DNA from: Chitinophagales bacterium | Lineage (GTDB): Bacteria; Bacteroidota; Bacteroidia; Chitinophagales; CAIOSU01 | DNA length: 64,000 nt | Direction of reading: 5' to 3' | Assembly (NCBI GenBank): GCA_026003335.1 | Contig: BPHB01000001.1 | Span: 320,591 to 384,590, forward strand | Shown here: positions 22,758 through 29,857 of the stretch, one piece after another | Numbering within the stretch: position 1 is the first letter of the stretch | Layout: each line of letters begins with the position of its first letter | Notes under the pieces: generated by a model | Seen by the model: only the letters and a program-made list of their open reading frames with translations | Told to the model about the DNA's origin: nothing | The model's database searches: none | Position numbers and translations under genes: made by a program

Positions 22758-24014
22758 TCAAGGCACCCGTGTGTGCCCTGAGCCTTCAATGATGTACTTA
22801 TAGCTGGTTAATTCATTAAGGGCCATAGGTCCGCGGGCGTGTAGTTTTTGTGTGCTGATACCAATTTCGGCACCCATGCCAAATTGCGCTCCATCAGTGA
22901 AAGCAGTAGACGCATTGGCATAAACTGCAGCTGCATCCACGCTTTTTAAAAAGCGGTCAATAACCGCGCGATCTTCGGCAATAATGGCCTCGCTGTGTCG
23001 CGAACTGTACGTGTTTATGTGCTCCAGGGCCTCATCCAGGCTGCTGACGGTTTTTATTGCCATCTTCAGTGACAGAAACTCGGTTCCGTAATTGCGCGCG
23101 TCAGCCGGGTGAAGCAAATGTGCAGGATACGTATCTTTTAAGACACGAAATGCCTTTTCATCGGCAAAAAGTTGAACGCCTTTTTCAGACAGGGGCTTTG
23201 CTATTGCTGGTAAGTCGGGAAGCCTCTTGTCATGCATGATAAGACAGTCCAGGGCATTGCACACGCTCACCCTGCGCGTTTTGGCATTCAGAACAATTGC
23301 AATGCCTTTTTGCAAATCAGCTGACTCATCAAAGTAGGTATGCACAATGCCGGCTCCTGTTTCAATGACGGGCACTTTCGCCTGTTGTCTGACATAGTCA
23401 ATCAGCTGCTGGCTTCCCCGCGGGATTACAAGATCAACCAGACCCACTGCCTGCAAAAGCGCATCGGCAGCCGCTCTGTCGGAAGGCATCAGCCAGACGA
23501 TATCCGGATTTACCTTATTTTGCTCCAGTATCTTTTTAATAAGAGCAACAATAGCCCTGTTGGAGTATTCCGCCTCACGGCTGCCTTTCAAAACACAGGC
23601 ATTTCCGGATTTAAGACATAAGGAAAACACATCAAATGTGACATTCGGGCGAGACTCATAGATCATTCCGATAACCCCAATGGGCACCGTAATTTTTTTG
23701 ATAAACAGGCCGTTGGGGAGCTGTTTTTCTTCCAGTACTTTACCAACCGGATACTCCAGCGATGCCACTGTTTGTATATCCCCGACAATAGATTTTATGC
23801 GATCATCAGTAAGTTTCAGACGGTCATACCGCGGATCCTCAGGATTCATCCGGTCCAAATCTTTTTTATTTTCATGCAACAGCCACTCCACGCTGTCAAG
23901 AGTTGCGTTAGCCAAATCGCGGAGTATCTTGTTAATCCGTTCAACGGGCAATGAAGAAAGAATCCTTGAAGCCGCCTGTACGCGCTTCAAATTATCCTGG
24001 ATAGATGCAGCCAT
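22758..24014 (-). CDS. proA: glutamate-5-semialdehyde dehydrogenase (gamma-glutamyl phosphate reductase)
   Basis: 418-aa aldehyde-dehydrogenase-fold ORF with full-length ProA-like sequence, directly downstream of proB. Confidence 0.9.
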
Positions 24015-24022
24015 GTATCAGA

Positions 24023-25117
24023 TTAAGGATTTAAAAATAAATAATCATAATGTACCAGCTCGGGTTGCCCTTTAAGTCCCATCCGTTCGGCAGCCTTTTC
24101 TGAGCTGTATCGTGCCATTCCCAGACCAAGAAGCTTTCCGCTTTGACTCAAAATACGGATGATATCTCCTTTCTCAAACTGCCCCTCCACCTTCACGATC
24201 CCTACCGGCAACAAGCTTGCCGCACGGGACGTGGCCGTAAGGGCAGCTTCGGCCCCCTCGTTAATCACAACACTACCCTTTGTAAATCCTCCGGAGTGAG
24301 CTACCCAGCGCTTCAGGGCCGAAGTGGTTTTCTGCGGAACAAAGCGGGTGCCTTCAGGCACACCGTGAAGAATTCTGGAAAGAATGTGCTCCTTTCTGCC
24401 GTTGGCAATGTGCACCGCTATACCGATTCGCGATAACTGACGTGCCATGCGTACTTTGGTAATCATACCGCCACGGCCAAACTGGCTTTTGCCTGGAGAA
24501 ACAAAGGAAAGATCCATTGTGCTGTGCACTTCAGGAATGACTTTAGCTCCGATATCCTGCGGATTCCCATAATACAGACCATCCACGCTGGTAAGCAAAA
24601 TGAGCGCATCGGCTTGTATCATGGCTGCAATCAGGCCGCTGAGTTCATCATTGTCGGTAAACATCAGCTCAGTAACGGCTACGACATCATTTTCATTTAC
24701 TACCGGCAAAACCTGATTGCGCAGCAGGTGAGTAACACAGTTTTTCATATTCAGATAGTGCCTGCGGTCACGGAAGTCGGCTCTTGTAACAAGCACCTGG
24801 GCACAGACAATGCCATGCCCGGCCAACAGGTGGGCATACTGACTGATGAGTTTGATTTGGCCCACTGCCGCAAGCTGCTGTCGCAGTGCTACTTCATCGG
24901 TCTTTTTGTTTATCCGTATCACACTGCGCCCGCATGCAACTGCTCCGGATGATACCAGCACCACCTGCAGTCCCTTTTTCTTTACCCAGGCAAGCTGCTC
25001 CGTGAGGTTTTTAATCTGTTCAATGTCGGGATAACCGTCACCGGTGGTTACTACATTAGAGCCAACTTTAACTACTATGGTTTTATAAGGCATCAGGTGC
25101 GTTCTACTCTTTTCCAT
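24023..25117 (-). CDS. proB: glutamate 5-kinase with C-terminal PUA domain
   Basis: 'KTIVVKVGSNVVT' amino-acid-kinase N-terminus and a PUA-like C-terminus. An alternative start at 25093 (MPYKTIVV) would remove the 14-nt overlap with the upstream gene. Confidence 0.9.
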   Translation of the reverse strand: MEKSRTHLMPYKTIVVKVGSNVVTTGDGYPDIEQIKNLTEQLAWVKKKGLQVVLVSSGAVACGRSVIRINKKTDEVALRQQLAAVGQIKLISQYAHLLAGHGIVCAQVLVTRADFRDRRHYLNMKNCVTHLLRNQVLPVVNENDVVAVTELMFTDNDELSGLIAAMIQADALILLTSVDGLYYGNPQDIGAKVIPEVHSTMDLSFVSPGKSQFGRGGMITKVRMARQLSRIGIAVHIANGRKEHILSRILHGVPEGTRFVPQKTTSALKRWVAHSGGFTKGSVVINEGAEAALTATSRAASLLPVGIVKVEGQFEKGDIIRILSQSGKLLGLGMARYSSEKAAERMGLKGQPELVHYDYLFLNP

Positions 25118-26210
25118 CGGCTTTATTGTTCATAACTTTTTGCTGCACACGTATAGATTCCTGATGAATGAGGCGAAGCATATCCCTGACAAAGTTTTCG
25201 CTTAACCCCATAGCAATTCCCTGCCCAAGACGTGTTTTAATAATTTGATCCCACCGGGCAACCTGAAGAATGGTAACATTATTATCCCGTTTATATTCAC
25301 CGATACGCTCCGAAATTTTCATGCGGGCTGCAAAGGAGCGCATGATTTCGTCATCCAGCTTATCAATTTCCTCCCGCAAAAGGGTTAGTTTGTCCTTAAA
25401 TTGCCTGTTGGGAGAGGTCGTTTGCCGCACGATCAATTCATCCAGCAATTGTCCCAGGGCTGAAGGCGTAATCTGCTGACGGGCATCGCTTAAAGCTGCG
25501 TCCGGATGAAAATGACTTTCAATCATCAGTCCGGACATATCCAAATCCATCGCTTTCTGGGCTATGAAGGGAATAAGCTCGCGCTGACCGCAGATATGGC
25601 TTGGATCGCATAGTATTTCCAGGCCGGGGCATCGGATTTTCAATTCAATGGGAATGTCCCACATGGGTGCATTACGAAAAGGACTGTTTTTGTCGTAAGA
25701 GGAAAAACCGCGATGGATGGCGGCCAGCCTGGCGATGCCTGCGCGATTGAGTCTTTCCAGGGCGCCAATCCAGAGTTCCACATCAGGATTAACCGGATTT
25801 TTTATCAGCACCGGTATATCCGTACCTTTGAGCGCATCTGCAATTTCCTGAACCAGAAACGGGTTGACTGTTGTGCGGGCGCCAATCCATAAAATGTCTA
25901 TTCCTGCTTTCAGGCAGGCTTCCACATGTGCGGCACTGGCCACCTCCGTAGCTACGGGCAGGCCGGTAGCCTGACCAGCCGCCTTAAGCCAGGAGAGTGC
26001 CCGGGCTCCTGCACCTTCAAATTGATCAGGTCGGGTGCGAGGTTTCCAGATACCTGCACGTAAAATGTGCACTCGCCCCAGGGCTGCCAGTTGTAAGGCA
26101 GTTTGCAACATTTGCTTTTCGCTTTCCGCACTGCACGGGCCACTGATGATTACCGGCTTGTTGACCTGCAGCCAGTCATTGAAGGGTAAAACCTTTAGTT
26201 GCTGATTCAT
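25104..26210 (-). CDS. bifunctional 3-deoxy-7-phosphoheptulonate (DAHP) synthase / chorismate mutase type II
   Basis: The N-terminal ~270 aa is a KDO8PS-like (type I-beta) DAHP synthase barrel. The C-terminal ~90 aa 'LREEIDKLDDEIMRSFAARMKISERIGEYK' is an AroQ chorismate mutase helix bundle. Confidence 0.85.
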   Translation of the reverse strand: MNQQLKVLPFNDWLQVNKPVIISGPCSAESEKQMLQTALQLAALGRVHILRAGIWKPRTRPDQFEGAGARALSWLKAAGQATGLPVATEVASAAHVEACLKAGIDILWIGARTTVNPFLVQEIADALKGTDIPVLIKNPVNPDVELWIGALERLNRAGIARLAAIHRGFSSYDKNSPFRNAPMWDIPIELKIRCPGLEILCDPSHICGQRELIPFIAQKAMDLDMSGLMIESHFHPDAALSDARQQITPSALGQLLDELIVRQTTSPNRQFKDKLTLLREEIDKLDDEIMRSFAARMKISERIGEYKRDNNVTILQVARWDQIIKTRLGQGIAMGLSENFVRDMLRLIHQESIRVQQKVMNNKADGKE

Positions 26211-27106
26211 GGTCGGGAAGATTTGTGCGCAGATTTGTTTTTGCGTCTGTCTTTTAATTCAATACCATCCAGAATTCTTCGTATATCGTTGGCTCGTTTC
26301 ATTACCCGTACGAGAGCCTTTGTATCTTGTTTCAGCAGGTAGTAATGAAACTTTTGCAGATGGAGAATGTACTCCAGTAAAGCCTGAGCAAGATATTCGC
26401 GATTTTGTTCAAAAATAGGAGCCCACATTTGAGGAGAGCTCTTGGCCAGCCTTACAGTGGACGAGAAGCCGCTACCGGCCATATTGAATATATTTTCTTC
26501 ATCCTTTTCAATATCCAGAACCGTTTGTCCGAGCAGAAATGAGCTGATATGAGAAAGGTGTGACACGTAAGCCGCATGGCGATCATGTTCCTTGGGTTGC
26601 ATAAAGAGGGTTTTCATGCCAAGCAGCCGAAAAAGTTGCAGCGCCCGTGACAGGGCTTTTGAAGAGGATTTTTCTCTTTCACAGATGATATTGGTTTTGC
26701 CGCGGAACAATCCTTTCAGCGCAGCCTGCGGGCCGGAATGCTCGGTGCCGGCAATAGGATGCGCTGCAACAAACTGCTCCCGTCTGGGATGAGTGGCTAC
26801 TGCCTCGCAAATTTTCGCTTTGGTGGAACCAGTATCAATCACAACGGTGTGGGTTTTAACCTGATTCAGTATTTCGGGCAATAAGCGCAAGAGGGCATCT
26901 ACAGGAATGGTTAAAAAAACTACATCGGCTTGTTTGAGTGCCTTACCCAGCGGCAGTATGGTATCTACAAGTTTTAAACGGTGGGCAGCCCTGGCATGCA
27001 CGACATTGGAATCCACTCCTATAATAGATTGAATCCGTCCGGATGCGCGTAAATCTTTGGCTATAGAACCACCAATAAGACCAGTGCCTACTATGACTAC
27101 CTGCAT
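26207..27106 (-). CDS. tyrA: prephenate dehydrogenase
   Basis: Rossmann motif 'VVIVGTGLIGGSIAKDL' and a TyrA-like C-terminal domain. ATGA overlap with the downstream DAHP synthase gene. Confidence 0.85.
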   Translation of the reverse strand: MQVVIVGTGLIGGSIAKDLRASGRIQSIIGVDSNVVHARAAHRLKLVDTILPLGKALKQADVVFLTIPVDALLRLLPEILNQVKTHTVVIDTGSTKAKICEAVATHPRREQFVAAHPIAGTEHSGPQAALKGLFRGKTNIICEREKSSSKALSRALQLFRLLGMKTLFMQPKEHDRHAAYVSHLSHISSFLLGQTVLDIEKDEENIFNMAGSGFSSTVRLAKSSPQMWAPIFEQNREYLAQALLEYILHLQKFHYYLLKQDTKALVRVMKRANDIRRILDGIELKDRRKNKSAHKSSRP

Positions 27107-27109
27107 AGA

Positions 27110-28309
27110 TTATCTTTTCGCTTTAACAAAATGGGTTATTCTTTTTAACGCCTCCTGCATATCTGCCTCCGGGCAACATAAAGAAAGCCGCACATATCTG
27201 TTGCCGCCAGGCCCGAAAATAAAGCCCGGAGCGATAAACACTTTTGCCTCATAAAGAATGGCATCAATCCAGGTTTCTACATTTTCAACAGAATCGGGCA
27301 CTTTGGCCCATACAAACATTCCGGATTGATTGTTGGTAAAAGAGCAACTTAAGGCACGAAGTATTTCAGTTGCCAATTCCTTTCTCCGGCTATAAATGAA
27401 ATTCTGCTGGTCATACCATGCCCTCCCCAGACGCAGAGCGGCAATCGCTGCGCGCTGTATTCCCAGAAACATGCCGGAGTCCATATTGCTTTTTATCCGC
27501 AGAATAGCATCCAGATATTCAGGCTTGCCGGCCACCCATCCCACACGCCAACCGGCCATGTTATGTGATTTGCTTAGAGAATGCAGCTCAAGGGCTACCT
27601 CAGCAGCTCCGTTTGCCGTCAAAATGCTCTGTGGTGTTTTATTTAAAATAAAACTGTAGGGATTATCATGTACGATGAGGAATCGGTTCTCGTGCGCAAG
27701 ATCAACCAGAGACTGAAATTCCTCAGCCGAAGCAGTTACCCCCGTGGGCATGTGGGGGAAGTTTATCCACATAAGCTTGACTTTATGCAAGCTGTTTCTA
27801 AGCTCATGGATGGCAACAGCCGAAGCATGGTTAGTATGCACGGGGTATGCAATTACTTCTGCTCCGGCAATGTGTGCAGCGGCCGAATAAGCCGGGTAGC
27901 CCGGGTCAGGGACCAACACCTTGTCTCCCGGATTCACAAAAGCCTGTGTGATATGGAAAATGCCTTCCTTGGAACCCATGAGGGGAAGAATCATGCTTTC
28001 TGCTTGCAGACTAACGTTGTAATGAAGCTGCATAAACGAAGCTATAGCTTCACGCAAGGCAGGTATTCCGCGATAGCTCTGATATCCATGGCTGTTAGCA
28101 TCCCGGGCTACTGCTCTCAGCTCCGCAATCACTTCAGGCGCAGGAGGTAAATCCGGATTGCCGATACCCAAATTAATGACCCGATATTGGGGAGTATCCA
28201 GCTTTCTCACCTCGGCTAGCTTGCGGGAAAAGTAATATTCTTCTGCCAACCATGTGCGCTGCGCAGGCTGTATGAAAAGCCCGTTAGCTCTCTGTTGTAT
28301 ATGATTCAT
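27110..28309 (-). CDS. class I/II PLP-dependent aminotransferase (probable aromatic/prephenate aminotransferase)
   Basis: PLP-lysine motif 'SLSKSHNMAGWRVGW'. First gene of the tyrA-containing string. Confidence 0.8.
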   Translation of the reverse strand: MNHIQQRANGLFIQPAQRTWLAEEYYFSRKLAEVRKLDTPQYRVINLGIGNPDLPPAPEVIAELRAVARDANSHGYQSYRGIPALREAIASFMQLHYNVSLQAESMILPLMGSKEGIFHITQAFVNPGDKVLVPDPGYPAYSAAAHIAGAEVIAYPVHTNHASAVAIHELRNSLHKVKLMWINFPHMPTGVTASAEEFQSLVDLAHENRFLIVHDNPYSFILNKTPQSILTANGAAEVALELHSLSKSHNMAGWRVGWVAGKPEYLDAILRIKSNMDSGMFLGIQRAAIAALRLGRAWYDQQNFIYSRRKELATEILRALSCSFTNNQSGMFVWAKVPDSVENVETWIDAILYEAKVFIAPGFIFGPGGNRYVRLSLCCPEADMQEALKRITHFVKAKR

Positions 28310-28339: not shown

Positions 28340-28360
28340 CCGGCAGGCAATACCTGCCGG
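28340..28360 (-). promoter_or_regulatory. GC-rich 5'-UTR hairpin 30 nt upstream of the aminotransferase start codon
   Basis: Minus-strand CCGGCAGG (28360-28353) / CCTGCCGG (28347-28340), 8 bp perfect, loop UAUUG, no U-tract. Confidence 0.35.
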
Positions 28361-28388: not shown

Positions 28389-28421
28389 AAAACAAAAAGT
28401 CCCGGATGATTCCGGGACTTT
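28389..28421 (-). terminator. intrinsic terminator (attenuator terminator) upstream of the aminotransferase-tyrA operon
   Basis: Minus strand: AAAGTCCCGG (28421-28412), loop AATCAT, CCGGGACTTT (28405-28396), then TTGTTTT. This is a 10-bp stem followed by a U-rich tail. Confidence 0.75.
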
Positions 28422-28445
28422 CCATGTATTCAGCTATTCTTATAG

Positions 28446-28538
28446 TCACCAACGCGACACATTCAGCCGTCCCGGAGGGCATAGCCTCCCGTAATACGGA
28501 TAAGAATAAAATCGCGTTGTAGTTTTTCCTGTCAGCAT
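28446..28538 (-). CDS. candidate leader peptide, 30 aa: MLTGKTTTRFYSYPYYGRLCPPGRLNVSRW
   Basis: Hand-translated small ORF, too short for the ORF track. A run of F-Y-S-Y-P-Y-Y (4 Tyr + 1 Phe in 7 codons) lies immediately upstream of hairpins and the terminator and 230 nt upstream of the aminotransferase/tyrA operon. Confidence 0.55.
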   Translation of the reverse strand: MLTGKTTTRFYSYPYYGRLCPPGRLNVSRW

Positions 28539-28588
28539 TGGCGGCAAATTAAGTTAAAAATTATCACACAGGCAATTCATTTTTATTT

Positions 28589-29857
28589 TTATGTACGCTG
28601 GCTGACACGTACTCCAAGTTTTTGCAGGTCATCATAAAAAGCGGGGTATGATTTTTCTACAGCCTGACTTTGGCATATTGTCACCGGCTGAGTTGCCCGC
28701 AAAGCAGCCACAGCAGCTGCCATGGCAATGCGATGATCCTGATGGGAATCCACTACCCCACCCTTACAAGCTGAACTACCATTAATGCGCATTGCATTGC
28801 CCTGTAGCCGGATAGCTATGCCCAGCTTACCCAGCTCCTGCTGCAGCGTCAGTGCACGGTTGCTTTCCTTAAAGGTAAGCCGCTGTGTGCCGTGAATTAC
28901 GGACTCTCCTCCGGCAAAGGCGGCCAAAACAGCCAGCACAGGAAAAAGATCAGGACAATCCGTAGCGTCAAATACAAAAGGACGCGCCTCCTTTTTTGTC
29001 ACAGTGATTTTGTGCGGGGTTATTTCCACATGTGCACCATACAACTCCAATACCTGCAAGATAGCCCGATCGGCTTGCAGACTGTCAGGCTTGAGATTAC
29101 TCAGTTCAACCTGGCCGCTAATGGCAGCAGCAGCCATGAGCATAGCAGCGCCACTCCAGTCACCTTCAATTCTTATTTCACAAGGTCTAAATGTCTGGCC
29201 TGGCAAAATCCTGAATTCATTGTCTTCAAAATCTATATGCACTCCAAACTGACGCAGCACATCCAGAGTTAGCATCAGGTAAGGTCGGCTGACAGGCTCC
29301 CGCACATAAATAGACACAGGCTTTTCGGCCGCAAACGCGAAAGCATAGAGCAATCCGGTTATAAACTGAGAGCTAAGAGAGCCATCTACTGAAATATCTT
29401 TAGGCACCAAAGGACCCTGTAGCCAAAAAGGGAGCTTTCCCTGATGAGACCGAAACCTGACAGCCAATAGCTGAAAAACATGATCAAAAAAATGCATTGG
29501 TCTGGTCAACAATGAGCCTTCCCCTTCTATGACAACCGGTGTTTTACTCAATGCAAGAATGGGAGTAAACATACGCGCACTTAAACCGGATTCGCCCATA
29601 GTAACCCGCAAATGCTCCGGAAAACCCGTTGTTCCGCAAATCTTTAATACTTCTCCGACAGAACTAACCCGTGCGCCAGCCTGCATAATCACCTGCAGCG
29701 CTACCTTTTCATCTTTAGAATTACCCCACCCAAGTATGCGTGTTTCGCCATGTGTCAAAAGAGTAGCCGCCAGCACTCTTTGGGTTACACTCTTGGAGGG
29801 CGGACAATTCACCAGCCCTTTCACCTCTTCCACCGGATAGACAGTTGTTGTCATCAT
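28589..29857 (-). CDS. aroA: 3-phosphoshikimate 1-carboxyvinyltransferase (EPSP synthase)
   Basis: 422-aa ORF with N-terminal 'PPSKSVTQRVLAA' (the LPGSKS-type motif) and full-length EPSPS-like two-domain repeats. Confidence 0.9.
   Translation of the reverse strand: MMTTTVYPVEEVKGLVNCPPSKSVTQRVLAATLLTHGETRILGWGNSKDEKVALQVIMQAGARVSSVGEVLKICGTTGFPEHLRVTMGESGLSARMFTPILALSKTPVVIEGEGSLLTRPMHFFDHVFQLLAVRFRSHQGKLPFWLQGPLVPKDISVDGSLSSQFITGLLYAFAFAAEKPVSIYVREPVSRPYLMLTLDVLRQFGVHIDFEDNEFRILPGQTFRPCEIRIEGDWSGAAMLMAAAAISGQVELSNLKPDSLQADRAILQVLELYGAHVEITPHKITVTKKEARPFVFDATDCPDLFPVLAVLAAFAGGESVIHGTQRLTFKESNRALTLQQELGKLGIAIRLQGNAMRINGSSACKGGVVDSHQDHRIAMAAAVAALRATQPVTICQSQAVEKSYPAFYDDLQKLGVRVSQRT

Follow-up and report, generated by a model that had tools for sequence, protein, structure and literature searches.

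Within the Bacteroidota, the closest described counterpart of the element studied here is the leader of the pheA-aspC3 operon of Flavobacterium psychrophilum (THC0290_N_0195), a leader-peptide attenuator that encodes 27 amino acids, MNTNNTFYSNNSFYFYWNIGRDCYMVI, with tandem Phe/Tyr codons (Guérin et al. 2021, ISME Commun, PMC9723704, Table S7, SI D9). Its promoter has been mapped, its read-through is condition-dependent, and it is conserved in other Flavobacteriaceae and has no Rfam match (Guérin et al. 2021, PMC9723704). In addition, Bacteroides may use a pheL gene (Gurvich et al. 2011), and Rfam includes a cis-regulatory motif curated for the Bacteroidetes, the Bacteroid-trp leader (RF01692; Weinberg et al. 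2010). Outside the phylum, the aroR leader of Corynebacterium glutamicum (Phe-Tyr-Phe) controls the 3-deoxy-D-arabino-heptulosonate 7-phosphate (DAHP) synthase operon aroF by ribosome stalling (Neshat et al. 2014, via PMC11802643); it is reported to respond to Phe limitation and not to Tyr availability, and it is the only experimentally studied mixed Phe/Tyr leader that we found. In the present study we analysed an unannotated 150-nt stretch (positions 28389–28538) of a 64-kb window of an uncultured Chitinophagales bacterium (metagenome-assembled genome GCA_026003335.1, contig BPHB01000001.1, positions 320,591 to 384,590; 'the window' hereafter means all of this DNA), which carries a short aromatic-codon open reading frame (ORF) and a terminator before an operon that starts with an aminotransferase gene, tyrA and a fused DAHP synthase/chorismate mutase gene (DAHPS/CM).

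The analysis indicates that this element is very probably a ribosome-mediated leader-peptide transcription attenuator, a member of a family widespread in Bacteroidota before Phe/Tyr operons. The original prediction, drawn from the DNA letters of the window, had proposed attenuation of the trpL/pheL type for the aminotransferase-tyrA-DAHPS/CM operon, and this is supported by the recurrence of the element in relatives and by covarying pairings. It had left aside whether such a leader was already described: the kind is, in Flavobacterium, whereas the instance in the window is not. Our search of the literature on premature terminators and on attenuation in Bacteroidetes returned nothing useful.

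An aromatic leader ORF and its relatives

The leader ORF begins 50 nt past the stop codon of aroA (TAA at 28591–28589, minus strand), the spacing given in the original prediction, and its 30 codons and every other element listed there were recovered on the minus strand at the coordinates proposed, including the run of 4 Tyr and 1 Phe in the 7 codons 10–16 (Table 1). When the 279-nt gap between aroA and the aminotransferase gene was shuffled 3000 times with its dinucleotide composition kept, 14 of the shuffles contained an ATG ORF of 8–45 codons with 5 or more aromatic residues in 7 (p ~0.005), and the leader is the sole ORF of such aromatic density in the non-coding parts of the 64-kb window. 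The run thus places clustered codons for an amino acid of the downstream pathway ahead of tyrA and DAHPS/CM.

To place this leader among its relatives we used 80 related loci (L001–L080), fetched with the aminotransferase from a one-genome-per-species set of Bacteroidota, the best being 61% identical. In 65 of the 80, a Phe/Tyr-rich mini-ORF stands ahead of the gene that opens the aromatic operon; an ATG mini-ORF with at least 6 Phe/Tyr(/Trp) codons in 8 lies just 5′ of the first operon gene in 64 of them (for example MNSNRFYFFYFFYQSSAGLERESVC). On the question of conservation in related Bacteroidota, which had been proposed as a check, the aromatic codon run recurs in 65 of 80 loci, and the stems covary as described below. 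One leader, at L030:2813–2960 (a Cesiribacter metagenome-assembled genome, operon without pheA), starts with GTG, reads (V)SHNAIFNYYYYFFFSPSRDLKKLVRY and was missed by ATG-only scans; it has the boxes CACAACGC, CCCUCCCGGGAC and AAUAAGAAUA in common with the window. The first operon gene is usually prephenate dehydratase (Pfam PDT in L014), followed by the aminotransferase, tyrA and DAHPS/CM, and in L030, L045, L048, L051, L061, L073 and L080 pheA is absent and the leader stands directly before the aminotransferase gene, as in the window. With alternative starts allowed, we found no aromatic leader ORF in L042, L044, L046, L047, L049, L050, L053–L055, L060, L064, L065 and L079. These leaderless loci include Marivirga and some Flavobacteriales metagenome-assembled genomes, and they may use other control.

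A strong terminator follows 57 leaders, starting 15–52 nt (mostly 19–40 nt) past the leader stop; in the window the distance is 23 nt. The terminator 3′ arm recurs as a copy in 38 of 58 loci (each p <= 0.05), ~10–11 nt past the last aromatic codon and 38–53 nt before the terminator 5′ arm; the median length of this antiterminator match is 7 nt as against 4.2 in shuffles. In addition, the antiterminator changes together with the terminator from one locus to another, as seen in the pairs GGGACTT/AAGTCCC, CGGGGCTC/GAGCCCCG, GAACCGG/CCGGTTC and CCGGGAT/ATCCCGG.

Base pairing was then scored over an alignment of 58 sequences, window included. As RNAalifold on the MAFFT alignment recovered the terminator only, the other helices were specified by hand and tested by pair counts. 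The antiterminator was paired in 80.5% of cells, compared with 22–56% when the arms were slid, and 3 of 500 shuffles reached its score. For the hairpin that would block it (1:2, the anti-antiterminator) the corresponding values were 74% and 30–54%, with 0 of 500 shuffles, and for an outer stem, which links the codons immediately 5′ of the aromatic run to the 3′ end of the ORF, 66% and 37–52%, with 74 double changes where 37 were expected and again 0 of 500 shuffles. Paired cells were not counted for the terminator, which shows compensatory changes in 11 of its 11 pairs. Three mutually exclusive helices, each covarying, are the signature of an attenuator.

The leaders fall into two classes by the position of their stop codon. 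In the first (...GL*) the ORF stops 8–11 nt after the start of the antiterminator, which in line with the classical model would then lie under a terminating ribosome, and in the second (...GLERESVC*), to which the window belongs, the ORF is 25–35 nt longer and runs through the 3′ arm of the outer stem.

Alternative pairings in the window

The intergenic RNA of the window folds far better than its shuffles (z = -4.75), and it carries all four helices, i.e. the outer stem, 1:2, 2:3 and the terminator, in the geometry of the family. The outer stem (28519–28511/28458–28450) is a perfect 9 bp with both sides changed relative to the relatives. The 1:2 hairpin, CGGGAGGC-UAU-GCCCUCCG at 28491–28473, has a 3-nt loop and a predicted energy of -8 kcal/mol, or -13.1 kcal/mol with a CCGU/ACGG extension. 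It is the GGAGG/CCTCC hairpin that had been noticed directly after the last Tyr codon, and it occupies the position of the family's anti-antiterminator with a sequence that is the window's own. The extension also accounts structurally for the Pro codon within the Tyr run, as its CCGU pairs with ACGG.

The heptamer CCGGGAC (28475–28469) had been put forward as an antiterminator. This assignment holds and could be extended: the complementarity is in fact 8 bp, UCCGGGAC at 28476–28469 with GUCCCGGA at 28418–28411 (-17.1 kcal/mol), and corresponds to the conserved antiterminator of the family. The 8-nt match has p = 0.01 against shuffles, at an offset of 14 and 46 nt before the terminator arm.

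The terminator, previously traced down to 28389 with a stem of 10 bp, is confirmed at 28422–28389 with a GC-rich stem of 12–13 bp and an energy of about -19 to -20 kcal/mol. A scan written for this analysis flagged it and a simple terminator scan did not, because G-U pairs can draw part of the U tract into the stem and too few T are then left. The stem motif AGUCCC..GGGACU occurs at 37 sites in 543 kb of related loci, all of them at leaders, and once in the window (28398–28419), where a copy of its 3′ arm also lies inside the leader, as is the trait of the family. The stem sequence is kept across Bacteroidota orders, which is unusual for a terminator and presumably reflects the need to match the antiterminator copy that the ORF contains.

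Full-length folds with ribosome masks were uninformative, the terminator always winning, and were replaced by folds of transcripts truncated before the terminator 3′ arm. These show a switch. With no ribosome, a 70-nt leader hairpin (-31.7 kcal/mol) sequesters region 2, the terminator arm is free and the terminator is favoured, and with the ribosomal A site on any of codons 11–16 the 8-bp 2:3 helix forms. A comparison of terminator and antiterminator folding, which the original prediction had named as a check, thus gives a switch to the 8-bp antiterminator when the ribosome occupies the Tyr codons of the truncated transcript.

Membership of the window in the leader family

We built a covariance model (R1) from 57 relatives, window excluded, on the off-state structure (144 positions). 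It matches 28532–28387 on the minus strand with 47 bits and E = 2e-7 over positions 1–144 of 144, its sole strong match in the 64 kb apart from the palindromic terminator on the opposite strand, and in the resulting alignment all outer-stem and terminator pairs form in the window. An nhmmer profile gives the window E = 3.5e-8 over positions 49–143, the 3′ two-thirds. Rfam at E <= 10 returned for the window only chance matches to terminator-like small RNAs (STnc230, AsxR, rimP), with no meaningful match to its leader families (the Phe, Trp, His, Thr and Leu leaders, Bacteroid-trp and the leu/phe leader), and at gathering scores it returned no match on 20 related loci. No Rfam family covers these aromatic leaders.

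Several observations weigh against the attenuator assignment. When a ribosome is placed at the stop codon, the truncated transcript still has the antiterminator in its minimum-energy fold; the stop is 21 nt past region 2, and a terminating ribosome therefore leaves region 2 uncovered. The off state thus rests on a kinetic argument, in which 1:2 would be the preferred pairing behind an unstalled ribosome. As soon as the transcript includes 7 nt of the terminator 3′ arm, the terminator is the minimum-energy structure at any ribosome position, so that read-through depends on kinetics; in Escherichia coli trpL the antiterminator is likewise weaker than the terminator and read-through is kinetic. 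In most relatives the terminator arm is already paired in the truncated fold with no ribosome present, 13 of 57 being clean thermodynamic switches, and since thermodynamics alone therefore gives no family-wide test, it was not used as family evidence. As to homology, a profile hidden Markov model without the terminator columns finds nothing in the window, so that no homology of the 5′ half can be shown from primary sequence, and the covariance model left the inner hairpin of the window unaligned, as an insert; membership consequently rests on architecture, context and the family-specific terminator and not on similarity of the 5′-half sequence. The codon run is also short, with 5 aromatic codons in 7, broken by Ser and Pro, where the relatives range from 6 upwards with a median of 8, and at 5 of 7 (5 of 8) it falls below the family threshold of at least 6 Phe/Tyr codons in 8. 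The leader of the window is therefore an atypical, weaker and Tyr-biased member of the family. Finally, an exact-protein look-up of the aminotransferase returned no record, and a search for its homologues among 5.8 billion proteins found the next relative at 63% identity and none closer, so that conservation of the leader was assessed across distant relatives.

Proposed mechanism

In the mechanism that we propose, transcription would start at a Bacteroidota-type promoter just 5′ of the leader ATG. With charged tRNA-Tyr (and tRNA-Phe) plentiful, a ribosome translating the leader would cross codons 10–16 unstalled, region 1 (CGGGAGGC) would pair with region 2 (GCCCUCCG) behind it and, after release, the 70-nt leader hairpin would close via the outer stem. 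The 1:2 hairpin, at a predicted -8 to -13 kcal/mol, would form upon the exit of region 2 from the ribosome, when RNA polymerase still has ~50 nt to transcribe before region 3 exists. With the antiterminator UCCGGGAC locked away in this manner, the terminator (regions 3 and 4) would form and transcription would stop near 28389. When tRNA-Tyr is scarce, the ribosome would instead stall on the Tyr codons, especially the last two. Region 1 begins at the last base of the last Tyr codon, and a ribosome stalled on the last Tyr codons would therefore cover it; the free region 2 could then pair with GUCCCGGA once the terminator 5′ arm is made, giving read-through into aminotransferase-tyrA-DAHPS/CM and probably proBA.

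Other explanations of the element

The alternative that survives best, though we regard it as unlikely, is that of a decayed attenuator, a relic whose interrupted run no longer stalls ribosomes usefully and which now either terminates part of transcription constitutively or serves aroA as its terminator. Among 65 leaders, that of the window does rank last in aromatic codons (5, where the lowest count in relatives is 6 and the median 8), and the window has an unusually stable leader hairpin (-31.7 kcal/mol), an inner hairpin that departs from the family consensus and a terminator that always wins at full length. However, the antiterminator complementarity is intact and at 8 bp among the longest of the family, the 9-bp outer stem is perfect despite changes on both sides relative to the relatives, and the ORF remains open in the frame of the run, with its end at the position typical of the long-ORF class. 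Moreover, visual inspection of the sequence from the terminator to the aminotransferase gene showed no TAnnTTTG-like box, so that a constitutive terminator would silence an essential pathway.

That the promoter, structured RNA and terminator together make a trans-acting small RNA of ~150 nt, instead of or besides acting in cis, appears very improbable. Terminated attenuator transcripts that act in trans are known in other bacteria, and the unit is compact, strongly folded (z = -4.75) and equipped with its own putative promoter and terminator. Yet its position is fixed directly 5′ of the aromatic operon in 65 of 80 loci, the aromatic run is kept at the peptide level while the nucleotides vary, and the alternative pairings fit cis attenuation. 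A chance ORF beside an ordinary aroA terminator, a reading to which the hairpin 168 nt past the aroA stop with no other terminator between them would lend itself, has next to no probability and is already contradicted by the comparative data, given the aromatic density (p ~0.005), the family-specific terminator stem, the full-length match of the covariance model and the lack of a preceding aroA in the relatives.

Amino acid specificity

The original prediction described the presumed attenuator as tyrosine-sensing, and this part of it stands in a weaker form. The runs of the family mix Phe and Tyr, that of the window being the shortest, and its ratio of 4 Tyr to 1 Phe is on its own not significant (binomial against 0.43, ~0.11, by hand); the ratio does fit a trend among operons without pheA. 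The mean Tyr fraction of the leader runs is 0.43 in operons with pheA and 0.58 in those without (one-sided Mann-Whitney p = 0.019, window excluded and no phylogenetic correction applied). The most Tyr-biased runs, L051 (0.86), the window (0.80, second of 65) and L073 (0.71), are all from operons without pheA, and the operons without tyrA (L058, L068 and L071) have Phe-biased runs with Tyr fractions of 0.29–0.43. As judged from the codons, these data fit a composition tuned to operon content. We therefore offer, as a tentative suggestion on which we lean slightly to the sceptical side, that the leaders of the window, L051 and L073 may be Tyr-responsive attenuators whose codons were re-tuned from a mixed Phe/Tyr run after pheA was lost from the operon; if so, leader codon composition would track the branch enzymes in the operon. 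Still more speculative is the idea that the Pro codon in the run might let the switch sense proline on behalf of the co-transcribed proBA. We know of no Tyr-responsive ribosomal attenuator that has been shown experimentally.

A further feature linked to the Tyr codons in the original prediction was a perfect 9-nt complementarity between the Tyr tract, TATTCTTAT (28508–28500), and ATAAGAATA (28443–28435), just past the leader stop. The match is real at these positions and has p = 0.01 in the window. At -7.8 kcal/mol it is weak, it would cross the outer stem and it is absent from all predicted minimum-energy folds. In the relatives, pairing of this type gave no signal beyond U-rich/A-rich composition, 1 of 57 loci being significant; as composition explains the family signal, we rejected pairing between the run and the post-stop region as a conserved sequence-specific element. 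The AUAAGAAUA box itself is also present in L030.

The downstream operon and other features of the locus

The gene directly 5′ of the leader is aroA, assigned by Pfam as 5-enolpyruvylshikimate-3-phosphate synthase (ORF 29857–28589, minus strand). Downstream, the genes from the aminotransferase to proA (Table 1) overlap or are separated by 3–8 nt, and the proline and tyrosine/aromatic genes are therefore probably on one transcript, with proB and proA probably co-transcribed with the aromatic genes under the leader. No pheA was found in the whole 64-kb window.

A putative Bacteroidota-type promoter would give the leader a start of its own just upstream of the ATG. Its -7 box, TTAATTTG, has 1 mismatch to TAnnTTTG and ends 6 nt 5′ of the leader ATG, so that the leader mRNA would be nearly leaderless; in the relatives the TAnnTTTG box starts 24–33 nt before the ATG, or 12–15 nt in L001, L045 and L061. 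Sigma-70 promoter scans are not applicable to Bacteroidota promoters. A tiny and probably meaningless ORF, MNCLCDNF (28554–28580, minus strand), overlaps the putative promoter in the interval from the aroA stop to the leader. A second GC-rich hairpin is present 3′ of the terminator, ahead of the aminotransferase gene, in a stretch that in most relatives measures just 4–25 nt. It is a single copy in the window, and a repeat search that found it unique ruled out a repeated extragenic element.

Table 1. Coordinates of the leader, its RNA elements and the downstream genes in the window
Feature	Position	Strand	Basis
Putative Bacteroidota-type promoter: TTG (28575–28573), 20-nt spacer, -7 box TTAATTTG (28552–28545)	28545–28575	-	Sequence
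Leader ORF MLTGKTTTRFYSYPYYGRLCPPGRLNVSRW; 30 sense codons + TGA (28448–28446)	28446–28538	-	
Outer stem 5′ arm CAACGCGAU, immediately 5′ of the aromatic codons	28511–28519	-	Minimum-energy fold; covariance-model alignment
Regulatory codon run, codons 10–16: UUU UAU UCU UAU CCG UAU UAC (Phe Tyr Ser Tyr Pro Tyr Tyr)	28491–28511	-	Aligns with family Phe/Tyr run
Region 1, anti-antiterminator CGGGAGGC	28484–28491	-	Fold; family-equivalent position supported
Region 2: GCCCUCCG (28480–28473), pairs with region 1; UCCGGGAC (28476–28469), antiterminator	28469–28480	-	Folds and family
Outer stem 3′ arm GUCGCGUUG, at leader ORF end	28450–28458	-	Minimum-energy fold; covariance-model alignment
AUAAGAAUA box just 3′ of leader stop, complementary to Tyr-codon tract UAUUCUUAU (28508–28500)	28435–28443	-	Sequence
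Intrinsic terminator (regions 3 + 4): GAAAGUCCCGG (28422–28412), loop AAUCAU, CCGGGACUUUU, then UGUUUU	28389–28422	-	Fold and family pairs
Second GC-rich hairpin CCGGCAGG-UAUUG-CCUGCCGG, no U tract	28340–28360	-	Fold
Controlled operon (predicted)	22758–28309	-	ORFs and Pfam; junctions overlap or 3–8 nt
Aminotransferase, class I/II	28309–27110	-	ORF and Pfam
Prephenate dehydrogenase, tyrA	27106–26207	-	ORF and Pfam
DAHP synthase/chorismate mutase fusion	26210–25104	-	ORF and Pfam
proB	25117–24023	-	ORF and Pfam
proA	24014–22758	-	ORF and Pfam

Comparison with known systems

An unannotated 150-nt stretch is thus predicted to be a regulatory unit, which assigns control to the Tyr/aromatic operon, and probably to proBA, of an uncultured Chitinophagales bacterium, and a Bacteroidota-wide family of aromatic leaders, with four covarying pairings, emerges from the comparison. 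Since Rfam lacks a model of it, the family would be a candidate for curation and could then serve in annotation. Its Phe-rich, mixed and Tyr-rich leaders, matched to operon content, form a natural series in which the tuning of attenuator specificity could be examined. Attenuation as described in textbooks is left unchanged.

Like E. coli pheL-pheA and trpL, the element combines tandem codons for a product of the pathway with the pairings 1:2, 2:3 and 3:4, a terminator before the first gene and an antiterminator weaker than the terminator. It differs from them in having no sequence relationship, in codons that are Tyr and not Phe or Trp and that lie just 5′ of region 1 instead of inside it, in a stop codon 21 nt past region 2 and in an extra outer stem that encloses the run; it would also differ in its type of promoter and in the lack of a Shine-Dalgarno sequence, both of them Bacteroidota-specific. 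The Bacteroid-trp leader, RF01692, which we take to be a leader-peptide element 5′ of trp genes, concerns another amino acid and another operon, and gave no match on the window or on the 20 related loci searched. The C. glutamicum aroR leader resembles that of the window in being a mixed Phe/Tyr leader, but it is actinobacterial and unrelated in sequence, and the run of the window is Tyr-dominated.

The closest likeness is to the pheA-aspC3 leader of F. psychrophilum, which is likewise from the Bacteroidota, lies in the 5′ region of an aromatic operon and consists of a short ORF with clustered aromatic codons, and whose N-terminal MNxNNTF motif matches leaders of our related loci, for example that of L011, MNLNNTFYFYYYFF. 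In contrast, pheA is the first gene of the F. psychrophilum operon, whose leader run combines Phe, Tyr and Trp, whereas the operon in the window is without pheA and its run has 4 Tyr to 1 Phe. This comparison covers the operon, the ORF and its codons; in RNA structure, the window has a GGGAGGC/GCCCUCC inner hairpin of its own.

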